Source: Escherichia coli 042
GTDB lineage: Bacteria; Pseudomonadota; Gammaproteobacteria; Enterobacterales; Enterobacteriaceae
Direction: 5' to 3' (one strand)
Assembly (NCBI RefSeq): GCF_000027125.1
Contig: NC_017626.1
Length of the DNA stretch: 64,000 nt
Below, in pieces: positions 18,001-21,000 of the stretch (position 1 is its first letter; each line of letters begins with the position of its first letter). A program made the position numbers.

Positions 18001-21000
18001 CGGTTTGCTGGTATCTGCACGCAGAGGCACTGCATAGGGATCGCCCCCCACCTGAGTCACATACTCAAAGCCGTTAAGGATCAGCAGCGGCATTTTCTGC
18101 GGGTCGAGATCGCCATAGCTACTTAAATGCTCAACGGAGATACCCGCAAAATCCGGATGGAAGCCGAACTCAGCACTGTTTCCTGTAACCTGACCATGAC
18201 GTTTGAAATAGACAGTATCCAGGTTGGTGCCTACGGTCATGCTGGCTTTCGCGTCCGGCGTCCATTTATCGTTGGACAGATAGCGCAACACGTTCTGCAT
18301 AAAGTGCTTCATATCATTAGAATCACTGTTACGCGTACACTGACCGTTTTTATCAACACCGCCTTCCCAGCTGTAACCGTTCGGACAGCGCAGAATGCTG
18401 TTGTAGTGCGGGTTACCGATAACCATCAGTTTGCCCTCACCGACTTGCCCCAGCGAAATAAACGGCAGGTTAAAGGTGGCGGTATCGCGCGTAACGTTTT
18501 CCGGCTCAACGAGAGAAGGCGCTTCCGTAATGTACGCCAGCTCGTTTTTATCCCAGGCGCGTTTTTCGCCAAACGCCAGCCAGTAGTTTTTATCATTACG
18601 CGCCATCAGAATCGGGAAGGCCGCGTTGGAGATATTCACCACTGCCTGACCGCGCGCATTACCGGTACTGCCATAGAAGTTGGTAGAGTCATGGAAGACG
18701 TGGAATTTCGTCACTGATTTGTAATCTTTATCCACACCCCACAGCTTGTTGATAACGCCCTGAATCTGACCTTCGTTAACATTGCGTGCTGTCAACGAGA
18801 ACCAACGCTGAGAGTTGCAGCCCCCAAGGGAGTCACAAATCGCCGTATCAATCTCTTTAGCCTGCCCGGATTCAAACTGCTCAAGAAATTCGTTTGTCCG
18901 CTCAAAGGTTTGATCGCCTTCGCTCAACGCCTCGCCATTGGATAACGAGAGATTGATAATCTCGTTGATTACGTTGGGATACGCGGCAAAGACCTTGCGC
19001 ACTACGTCCGGCACTTCACGCTCATCATTTTTTCCGGCCTGGGAGTAACGATGAATAAGCTGATCAATATTCGCGCCGCGAACTTCGTCACCCAGTTCAG
19101 TCAACGCAATGGTCGACTTATTGCCGCGCACTGAGCCCAGTTCAAAGGTGTCGATACCAAAGGAGATGGTTTCGCCCCAGCTGAAGTTGAATTTGCCGTT
19201 TTCGCCAGTTACGCCACGGCCTGAGCTGGTGTAGTAATTTACGCCAACCACACCATTGCCCATGCTATCTACCAGTCGGCCTTCGGAGAGAATGATTTCA
19301 GTGGGTTGATACTGATAAAACTGTTCCGCGTTAGCCGACACGAAGGAAGCGTTCAGATCCGGTTTTGTTCCCGGCGTGGTGACGGGCACAACCGGTGAAG
19401 TATGAGTGGATGGCGCTTTATCGGTCGCGGCATTGTTTTCCACCTCTTCATTGACCAGCTTTTTGAACTCTTCCGGTGCCAGATCGATTTGCTTATACAG
19501 CGAGTCGAAACGTTTACTCTCGATCACTGAGGAGAACGTCAGGCAAACCTGTTCTGTATTCGCCGGACAGCTGTTACTGGACGTTACCAGCGAAACCGCA
19601 TTGCTTTTCTTGTCATCGGAAGCCGCCAGTTCTTGCGCGTCCTCAAGACTAAACGACACTTTTTCAACCGCACGCAGGCTACGCGCAGCTTCTGACTGGG
19701 TGTCGAAGGTAGCAATTGTCGTGTTGTTCCCTGCCACACAGGTGACTTTGTCGCCTGGCGTAAAGGTAAAGCCATCGCTGGATTCACCATTACAAGTAGC
19801 ACCAGTTATCCGCTGGCTTCCGCCCAGGGTCAGATAACCCGTTTTCGTAGGAACAGGTTCTGGCTCCGGTTCTGGTGTTGGCTCAGGATCAGGTGTCGGT
19901 TCCGGCGTAGGTTCTGGGTCCGGCGTTGGCTCAGGCGTCGGCTCCGGGTTTGGTGTTGGATCAGGTTTCACTTCCGGCAAAGACCCTGTTCCAGAATCTA
20001 CAGGCGGCGTATCGGAGGAAGATCCGGAGCCACCGCCATCACAACCGGCTAACAGGGTTGCACTCAAAATAGCCGCTAAAAGCGATTTCTTATATTTAAA
20101 TTTCTTATTCATTAATAACGCAAGTGACAAAACAAAGTTAAAAGATTCGTAACCGGGGAAATAGTTTTATGCTTTATCTTCTTTAATAACTTCCTCCATT
20201 CTTAAGAAAACGGCATCATTGATAGAAAAACAGGTGAAATTTATAAGAATAACCCCTATTCGATGTCTGGCTGGTTATTTTTACGAAATTTCAATAAACA
20301 AAAAATTAACAAGCTTTCACAACGTAACTATATAAATTTGTTGGTAGTTTTAACGATTAAGATTGCAAAAGCAACAGATAGAACGGTGTTTGCTCATCAA
20401 GCGAACATAATTAATACTGACTTGTTTTGCGTGATAAATAATAGATGTTCTCACGCTCTTAATTATTTAGCATGTTATCTGAACGCGAAACATTATTGCC
20501 ACATGGATAATAAAGCGGGAAATAATTTTCCATTAATAAGACAGAGTAATGTAAATGAAGCCGGATGATATTAACGATCATCCGGCATTATTGATTTACG
20601 AGACTAACATCCCAGTAAACACATACGCCTGCAACAGCGTGATAATGCCGATAACGCTGGCAAAAATCAGACTGTGCTTCACGGTGTAGCGGAACAGTTC
20701 AGATTCTCGGCCCACCATGCCCGTCGCGGCGCAGGCCACGGCGATAGATTGCGGGGAGATCATCTTGCCAGTTACGCCGCCGCTGGTATTTGCTGCCACC
20801 AGCAGAGTGTCAGAGACGTTGATTTGCTGCGCCGTGGTCGATTGCAGTGAACCAAACAGGGCGTTAGAGGAGGTGTCCGAGCCGGTAAGGAATACGCCCA
20901 GCCAGCCGAGAAACGGTGAGAAAAACGGGAACATTACGCCTGTACCTGCCAGTACCAGCGCCAGCGTGGTGGACATGCCGGAATAGTTGGTGACGAAGGC

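Follow-up and report, generated by a model that had tools for sequence, protein, structure and literature searches.

The interval between glcA and sslE (yghJ) in Escherichia coli 042 is very probably the regulatory spacer of the sslE–T2SS-beta operon, carrying a weak sigma-70 promoter that would be activated by Fis and repressed by H-NS and StpA. Within the window, by which we mean the whole 64-kb stretch of DNA that was analysed, this is the standard version of the sslE promoter region. Of 5,426 complete E. coli genomes, 4,089 carry the interval at a coverage of at least 80%; sequence identity is 95–99% across about 4,100 genomes, and this orthology supports the view that it acts in 042 as an H-NS-regulated promoter of the sslE operon. 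The orthologous region has already been characterised: its thermoregulation by H-NS/StpA was described in 2007 and its activation by Fis/TypA in 2016. Nothing in this picture is therefore new; in a small addition, we derive from published text the window coordinates of the start site, the hexamers and the Fis sites (Table 1). The exact positions of start site and hexamers, and the expectation that 042 behaves like the tested strains, are what we infer from the present analysis. The mucin-degrading lipoprotein SslE is an E. coli vaccine candidate that is broadly conserved, and its T2SS exports heat-labile toxin in ETEC, which is why the timing of this promoter matters for colonisation and antigen expression.

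Table 1 Features placed in and around the glcA–sslE interval of the window
Feature	Coordinates	Strand	Basis or remark
glcA–sslE intergenic region	20113..20595	-	contains glcA terminator, sslE promoter and sslE 5' leader
glcA intrinsic terminator hairpin GCCGGATGATCGTTAATATCATCCGGC, then TTCATTTACA	20560..20586	-	stem, folding and invariance
Equivalent of the UTI89 fragment in pQF50-sslE	20308..20597	-	primers 5570, 5571; active and Fis-dependent in UTI89
Putative Fis site F1 GTTCAGATAACATGC	20470..20484	-	centre −138 relative to predicted start
Putative Fis region F2, overlapping G-N13-C 15-mers GTTCGCTTGATGAGC, GCTTGATGAGCAAAC, GAGCAAACACCGTTC	20381..20406	-	about −67..−42
Predicted −35 hexamer TTGCTT	20369..20374	-	published Fis-site positions; in invariant run 20361..20381
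Predicted −10, TAAAAC (20352..20347, 16-nt spacer) or AAAACT (20351..20346, 17-nt spacer)	20346..20352	-	
Predicted transcription start, A	20339	-	UTI89 index 300; Fis-site triangulation
Best match (8/10) to H-NS high-affinity motif tCGATAAATT, TATATAAATT	20329..20338	+	+2..+11 of predicted transcript
Predicted 5' untranslated leader of sslE, 227 nt	20113..20339	-	AU-rich
sslE/yghJ start codon ATG	20110..20112	-	first gene of the operon
Equivalent of K-12 promoter island 3117080_374	20057..20430	.	coordinates transferred from K-12

The glcA–sslE interval and the glcA terminator

The interval is 483 bp long and has a G+C content of 31.5%, compared with a whole-window mean of 51.3%. A G+C fraction of 0.32 or less was seen in 2% of the 483-bp windows across the 64 kb, and these windows fall in about five patches. 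It is flanked by glcA (ORF 20596..22278) upstream and by sslE/yghJ (ORF ending at 15541) downstream, both on the minus strand, with identities confirmed by the RefSeq annotation of near-identical strains. Gene context showed an intact and co-oriented operon with short gaps, in the order sslE-pppA-gspS2(yghG)-gspCDEFGHIJKL-yghD(gspM), so that every gene from glcA to gspM lies on the minus strand. Inside the interval, RefSeq lists no further feature in AR_0077, K-12 or UTI89, and across the approximately 4,100 genomes that carry it nothing other than glcA and sslE is annotated there.

In AR_0077, K-12 and UTI89 the RefSeq start of sslE corresponds to the ATG at 20112, where a lipoprotein signal peptide, MNKKFKYKKSLLAAILSATLLAGC, also begins. 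The preliminary description had placed an AT-rich gap at 20131-20595 (G+C 0.314), bounded by the yghJ start and by the glcA hairpin. The AT-rich non-coding stretch is present as described, but both boundaries needed correction: the start at 20130/20131 was a mechanical TTG call, the true start being the ATG at 20112, and the hairpin (20586..20560) falls inside the interval rather than at its edge. The length given there, about 460 bp, is close to the 447 bp of AT-rich DNA that separates the ATG from the hairpin.

To look for conservation beyond E. coli, we scanned 100,044 species genomes with 20-mers. The one true match was in Escherichia sp. E1V33, whose sequence is almost the same as that of K-12, which limited the depth of phylogenetic footprinting. 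Five other matches in the same scan were chance hits in unrelated phyla. We also rejected the idea that the spacer marks the edge of an accessory module: loss of the module in NCTC86 reflects a single IS4-associated deletion, running from sslE into gspK and ending just below the glcA hairpin, and not a general boundary.

The hairpin begins 9 nt past the glcA stop codon and consists of a 10-bp stem with six G-C pairs, followed by 8 nt of which five are T. Its folding energy is −18.5 kcal/mol (z = −4.05 relative to shuffled sequences) and none of its 27 columns varies among 8 strains. In structure it is an intrinsic (Rho-independent) terminator, and being palindromic it scores on the plus strand as well. 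The terminator bears on the proposal that the sslE operon has no dedicated promoter and is transcribed mainly by read-through from glc, the AT-rich DNA being a passive remnant of horizontal acquisition. Co-orientation of glcA and sslE across only 483 bp and the interrupted T-tract (TTCATTTACA) would allow this, but the strength and invariance of the hairpin argue against read-through. In addition, the isolated fragment drives lacZ in UTI89 and a 5' end has been mapped within the spacer in two strains (PMC5012682), and sslE expression tracks temperature, H-NS and Fis rather than glycolate. We consider the read-through proposal scarcely credible.

Published promoter activity and its placement in the window

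Evidence for a dedicated promoter comes from orthologous strains. The content of Yang et al. 2007 (J Bacteriol 189:142) is given here second-hand, as reported in PMC5012682. According to that summary, sslE and 13 downstream T2SS genes of ETEC H10407 are carried on one polycistronic mRNA, the sslE regulatory region is bound by H-NS and StpA in binding assays, with open-complex formation blocked, repression is greater at 22 °C than at 37 °C, and temperature control is exerted at transcription initiation. The UTI89 start was mapped by 5' RACE and agrees with that of H10407, which comes from primer extension, and a UTI89 fragment cloned in pQF50-sslE gave approximately 410 Miller units, a value reduced to about half in a fis mutant (Tan et al. 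2016, PMC5012682). Fis activation in UTI89 required the F2 site, and mutation of F1 was without effect (PMC5012682). Deletion of hns increased sslE mRNA, as measured by qRT-PCR, at 22 °C in both UTI89 and EC958, while repression by H-NS at 37 °C was strong in EC958 and weak in UTI89, and SslE output varies several-fold among published strains (PMC5012682). Because expression differs between strains, 042 may depart in detail from these results. The preliminary description had proposed a promoter for the whole secretion operon that is repressed by H-NS and condition-dependent. Both proposals are supported by the experiments on orthologues, the first by the polycistronic mRNA and the active cloned fragment, the second by H-NS/StpA binding, the difference between 22 and 37 °C, the effect of hns deletion and chromatin immunoprecipitation (ChIP) in K-12 (see below).

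The promoter could not be located from consensus alone, since a consensus scan of both strands found no sigma-70 site matching at 9/12 positions or better and a PWM scan of the sense strand found no site above the level of shuffled sequence; it was therefore located from the published Fis-site positions. The window and UTI89 are identical at 280 of 290 positions across the cloned fragment (~96.6%). We triangulated the start from the text of PMC5012682, not from its figure, with a precision of ±1–2 nt. Setting +1 at 20339 places the centre of the single G-N13-C site at exactly −138, as expected for F1, and TTGCTT at exactly −35..−30. The only cluster of three overlapping G-N13-C sites then spans −67..−42, compared with published limits for F2 of −68..−41, which are 1 nt wider on each side. 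Under the 15-mer criterion that we applied for Fis (G at −7, R at −3, Y at +3, C at +7), all three F2 15-mers retain G/C at ±7 and R/Y at ∓3. This arrangement of putative Fis sites directly upstream of the −35 hexamer is the one expected of a Fis-activated promoter.

The candidate −10 matches the consensus weakly and lies outside the top PWM hits. The absence of a strong consensus sigma-70 site on the sense strand makes this a weak core promoter, which fits dependence on an activator. Among 8 strains, 3 of 40 columns vary in the core promoter and 2 of 26 in F2, compared with a variable fraction of 0.198 at third codon positions. Fis activation, a leader of about 227 nt and the weak consensus match of the core promoter were all absent from the preliminary description.

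A different core promoter within the same region, with a start some 20 nt downstream at about 20320 directed by the −10-like TATAGT at 20332..20327, appears unlikely. TATAGT is nearer to the consensus than TAAAAC or AAAACT, has the top PWM score on the sense strand (8.5 bits) and lies inside the active cloned fragment, whose downstream end is at 20308. However, only poor −35 partners are available to it, TTAAAA at a spacing of 15 nt and TCGTTA at 18 nt. Its score also falls short of the average best score in shuffled sequences (10.9), and the hexamer reads GATAGT in DG343. A start near 20320 would also leave one G-N13-C site only in −41..−68 and none centred at −138, in disagreement with the Fis positions on which the start at 20339 is based.

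H-NS and promoter-island signals

With a G+C fraction of 0.315 compared with 0.513 for the window, the interval has the low G+C content of H-NS-silenced regulatory DNA. Using the high-affinity H-NS motif tCGATAAATT (PMC2094087), we counted 15 matches of at least 7/10 in the interval, compared with 4.3 per 483 bp window-wide (3.5x); composition-matched shuffles gave 10.1 ± 3.2 (p ≈ 0.08), so that the excess loses significance when composition is taken into account. In the DNA orthologous to the K-12 promoter island (see below), 16 promoter-like signals were counted over both strands, compared with a window mean of 5.4 (94th percentile); their density, as measured with a simple PWM, is no higher than composition predicts.

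Placement of the K-12 promoter island in the window used an offset of 1977 between U00096.2 and U00096.3, which we assumed to be correct for the transfer of its coordinates. In K-12 the yghJ/glcA spacer is H-NS-bound in all three compiled ChIP data sets and is listed as "promoter island" 3117080_374 (Panyukov & Ozoline 2013, PMC3661553). RNA polymerase reportedly binds to promoter islands, which yield short abortive RNAs (PMC3661553), and such reports could also suit a functional plus strand, encoding either a 101-aa ORF (20263..20568) or an antisense RNA transcribed from TTGATA-17-TATAAG at 20219/20242. No other site in the region has a higher PWM score (12.0 bits), and transcription from it is predicted to start at about 20254, just before the ATG of the ORF at 20263. 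The score is nevertheless within the range of shuffled sequences (10.9 ± 1.3), the ORF has the composition of translated AT-rich DNA, and RefSeq places no gene on the plus strand here in the approximately 4,100 genomes. A variable T-run shifts the frame in S56, DG343 and NQ3, that is, in three of the six other strains in which the start was anchored (in K-12 and EBJ003 the pattern used gave no anchor), and we rejected the ORF as coding. A functional plus strand is thus very improbable.

Taking the interval as the regulatory spacer of the sslE operon, we propose the following mechanism. The glc transcript would end at the strong, invariant hairpin, insulating the operon from glcA. About 200 bp further on, a weak sigma-70 promoter with its −35 at TTGCTT (20374..20369) and its −10 at about 20352..20346 would initiate transcription at A20339. 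Fis, bound to the three overlapping sites at 20406..20381 just upstream of the −35, would stimulate this promoter during fast growth at 37 °C. H-NS and StpA would coat the AT-rich DNA, including the motif match at the start site, and keep the open complex from forming, with repression presumably strongest at ambient temperature. The resulting transcript would comprise a 227-nt AU-rich leader followed by sslE, pppA, gspS2/yghG and gspC–M as one operon.

The sslE leader and comparison with known systems

We next considered whether the leader is more than a spacer, acting as an RNA thermometer over the start codon, as an attenuator that depends on Rho/NusA or through a small upstream ORF, and judged this improbable. 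The leader is long and no Shine-Dalgarno-like sequence was found in it before the sslE ATG; two blocks, 20113..20135 and 20157..20182, are invariant among 8 strains, and a 12-nt A-U-rich complement of the start-codon region is present at 20238..20249. Two small ORFs can be read, MMPFS* (20219..20202) and MEEVIKEDKA* (20199..20167), and in UTI89 insertions in typA and nusA lowered sslE::lacZ by a mechanism left unexplained (PMC5012682). Against these points, a search of 19500..21200 gave no Rfam match at E <= 1 and the folding energy of the leader equals that of shuffled sequences (z = 0.03), results on which a thermometer or riboswitch was rejected. Its variation, 40 of 227 columns (0.176; 8 strains) compared with 0.198 at third codon positions, is near-neutral. 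Neither small ORF has a ribosome-binding site, and MMPFS* is disrupted in DG343, where the pairing between 5' end and start region in the minimum-free-energy fold is also altered and uncompensated. The leader therefore does not resemble a described cis-regulatory RNA, with no family, no excess stability and no compensatory change seen. Moreover, the cloned UTI89 fragment, which lacks most of the leader, retains promoter activity and the Fis response (PMC5012682), and the account of Yang 2007 in that paper places temperature control at transcription initiation. Post-transcriptional control through the AU-rich leader by TypA/BipA, NusA/Rho or temperature, independent of H-NS, seems marginally less likely still; leader control, if true, would add to the temperature and TypA/NusA dependence.

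The closest known system is the yghJ/sslE promoter of H10407 and UTI89, an orthologous locus that shares its flanking genes with the window. F1 and the TTGCTT −35 are identical in UTI89 and the window, and the distance to the ATG is 227 nt in both. All three 15-mers of F2 are preserved, the third differing by a single substitution, A for T. Relative to UTI89 and H10407, the window has strain-level substitutions only, including a few changes at +20..+30. The K-12 island is orthologous to approximately 20057..20430, and both are AT-rich and dense in promoter-like signals; promoter islands are described as near-silent (PMC3661553), whereas in strains whose operon is intact the sslE promoter is productive at 37 °C.

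More broadly, the eltAB and group 2 capsule (kps) promoters are, like that of sslE, AT-rich, under H-NS repression at low temperature and active at 37 °C, and kps shares with sslE a dependence on TypA/BipA. The systems differ in detail. H-NS binds downstream of the promoter at eltAB, whereas at sslE it is reported to bind within the promoter region, blocking the open complex. At sslE, in distinction from eltAB and kps, Fis acts as an activator that counteracts H-NS.

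The glcA–sslE intergenic region

The DNA between glcA and sslE (yghJ), the first gene of the T2SS-beta operon, had been described from sequence as about 460 bp of AT-rich DNA. The composition stood (G+C 0.315 over 20113..20595 versus 0.513 for the 64-kb window, with just 2% of 483-bp windows, grouped in about five patches, at 0.32 or below), and the boundaries needed two small corrections. The left edge at 20131 traces to an in-frame TTG 5' of the real sslE start, and the glcA terminator hairpin (−18.5 kcal/mol, z = −4.05) falls within the interval, leaving 447 bp from hairpin to sslE ATG. 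RefSeq annotation of AR_0077, K-12 and UTI89 places this ATG at the equivalent of window 20112, where a lipoprotein signal peptide of classical type (MNKKFKYKKSLLAAILSATLLAGC) begins; the intergenic sequence proper thus spans 20113..20595 (483 bp), with glcA and sslE the only RefSeq features across it. In the closest complete genome, AR_0077 (99.8% identity over 651 bp), RefSeq annotation has sslE followed by pppA, gspS2 (yghG), gspC–L and yghD (gspM) in one orientation, which implies a complete T2SS-beta operon in the window strain. The 5' part of sslE contains an imperfect tandem repeat (19850..19965, minus strand; periods 12, 18 and 30) coding for a Pro/Glu/Thr linker, PDPTPNPEPTPEPTPDPEPTPEPTPDPEPTPEPEPEPVPT. 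The sslE ORF is 15 nt longer in the window than in AR_0077, and the alignment of 19760..20112, the stretch containing the repeat, has 9 gap columns.

Features of the region and of the window start, with variable columns among eight strains
Feature	Position	Strand	Remark	Variable columns
glcA	20596..22278	minus	ORF; upstream neighbour
Terminator hairpin GCCGGATGATCGTTAATATCATCCGGC	20586..20560	minus	starts 9 nt past glcA stop codon, then TTCATTTACA	0/27 (p = 0.003)
Putative Fis F1	20484..20470	minus	isolated site centred −138
Putative Fis F2	20406..20381	minus	three-site cluster	2/26
Core promoter				3/40 (p = 0.03)
Putative −35 TTGCTT	20374..20369	minus	reconstructed from published Fis positions
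Putative −10 TAAAAC or AAAACT	20352..20346	minus	reconstructed from published Fis positions
Putative start site (+1)	A20339	minus	reconstructed from published Fis positions
Putative 5' leader (227 nt)	20339..20113	minus	A20339 to sslE ATG	40/227 (0.176), near neutral
sslE/yghJ	15541..20130	minus	mechanical ORF; 1,523-codon gene; downstream neighbour
JUMPstart element	2610..2648		58.5 bits; precedes kpsM
KpsM-like permease	within 1805..2641	minus	capsule cluster
KpsT-like ABC ATPase	1137..1808	minus	capsule cluster
Region-2-type gene, very AT-rich	356..1051	minus	capsule cluster

Published regulation and start-site placement

Experiments on orthologues support the proposals of the preliminary description that this region holds the promoter for the whole operon and that it is H-NS-repressed and condition-dependent. 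As summarized in Tan et al. 2016 (PMC5012682), Yang et al. 2007 found sslE and 13 downstream T2SS genes on a polycistronic mRNA in ETEC H10407, stronger repression of the operon by H-NS and StpA at 22 °C than at 37 °C, and binding of both proteins to the sslE regulatory region, which blocked open-complex formation. In UTI89, 5' RACE gave the same start site as in H10407; two UPEC strains had more sslE mRNA at 22 °C once hns was deleted; and the cloned promoter fragment drove about 410 Miller units, a value cut by roughly half either by a fis mutation or by mutation of Fis region F2 (−41..−68) (PMC5012682). E. coli W needed both LB and 37 °C to secrete SslE. The 78 "promoter islands" of K-12 include the yghJ/glcA spacer, which scored as H-NS-bound in all three compiled ChIP data sets (PMC3661553). 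These earlier experiments support assigning the interval as the known sslE/yghJ operon promoter region; it was known already, and nothing discoverable here carries the interpretation. Fis activation and the long leader were absent from the preliminary description. The strong terminator, the activity of the isolated fragment and the mapped 5' end contradict the idea that sslE mRNA arises chiefly by read-through from glcA.

The cloning primers of pQF50-sslE, the lacZ reporter of the UTI89 fragment (supplement of PMC5012682), map to window 20597 and 20308, which places the start site at least ~196 nt upstream of the sslE ATG. The equivalent of the active fragment, 20597→20308, is identical to UTI89 at 280 of 290 positions; the two are colinear here, which allows UTI89 promoter positions to be transferred. 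All 15-mers obeying the Fis core rule G-N13-C were listed to fix +1 against the published Fis positions. UTI89 has a single cluster of three overlapping sites and, at the right distance upstream, one isolated site obeying the R(−3)/Y(+3) rule. If UTI89 index 300 is taken as +1, the centre of the isolated site falls exactly at −138, the cluster covers −67..−42 (published, −68..−41) and TTGCTT occupies exactly −35..−30. The main alternative is a start near 20320, served by a better-looking −10, TATAGT at 20332, which is the top score of the sense-strand PWM scan; it fits the published Fis-site numbers poorly, however. The placement at A20339 is a reconstruction, accurate to about ±2 nt.

Core promoter, leader and conservation

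A consensus scan of the region returned no sigma-70 promoter, and a PWM scan no strong sigma-70 site on the sense strand (best 8.5 bits versus a shuffle mean maximum of 10.9 ± 1.3). These scans fit a weak core promoter that would depend on Fis and be readily silenced. Promoter-like sites on both strands number 16 against a window average of 5.4 (~3x; 94th percentile) and H-NS motif matches reach ~3.5x the window average density, both roughly what base composition alone gives. The best H-NS match, TATATAAATT (8/10), lies at +2..+11 of the putative transcript, which would be consistent with, but not proof of, a block to open-complex formation. In DG343-1 the early leader diverges from AAATTTATAT to AACTTGGGAT at +1..+10, abolishing this match (window 20329..20338); a triplet at ~+24..+26, within window 20310..20316, varies in nearly all strains.

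Of 5,426 complete E. coli genomes, 4,089 carry the spacer with coverage of ≥80%, and in most of them identity is 95–99%. Eight strains were compared against a rough neutral yardstick, the third codon positions of the flanking genes (0.198 variable). Within the leader, 20113..20135 and 20157..20182 are invariant. When single genomes representing each species were scanned by 20-mer, Escherichia sp. E1V33 was the sole real match beyond E. coli itself; its sequence is almost identical to K-12, making footprinting at greater depth impossible. In NCTC86, an IS4 element (L015 4380..6043) stands in place of the segment from sslE into the 5' part of gspK, with homology to the window resuming at ~20554, just below the glcA hairpin.

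The leader might add post-transcriptional control, given the TypA and NusA effects on sslE. The tests here gave no positive support: an Rfam search of the leader region (E ≤ 1) returned no match, and folding against shuffles indicated no extra stability (z = 0.03). Other candidates were also examined. The MFE helix pairing the leader 5' end with the start-codon region is broken, uncompensated, in DG343; none of the small leader ORFs has a ribosome-binding site, and DG343 carries a disrupted version of one of them; and a plus-strand 101-aa ORF (20263..20568) is frameshifted in three strains by a variable T-run.

Other loci in the window

Other AT-rich patches (G+C 0.31–0.33) lie at ~31000..31730, around the yghO/fatty-acyl-AMP-ligase divergent spacer by colinearity with AR_0077, and at ~44300..45050; the window's densest promoter-like sites are in the patch near 44500. 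The glcA–glcB spacer holds a full-length match to the C0719 sRNA family (RF00117; 297 bits; 22357..22578, plus), opposite in orientation to the glc genes, and REP-type repeat elements match naRNA4/CssrE (RF02564) at 47812..47888 and 58858..58928. An accessory cluster at ~31550..41000, placed by colinearity with L001 31506..40550, comprises in AR_0077 and UTI89 annotation a fatty acyl-AMP ligase, an epimerase, an acyl carrier protein, serine palmitoyltransferase (spt), extra LptF/LptG-like permeases, a YtfJ-family protein and an LPS-biosynthesis protein; most of it is presumably missing from K-12.

The window opens within a group 2 capsule cluster (1..2650, minus). AR_0077 is not colinear over this stretch and carries a CP4-type prophage remnant in its place. 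According to the literature, kps promoters are also thermoregulated by H-NS/BipA, and two loci with thermoregulation like that of sslE would thus flank the T2SS cluster.
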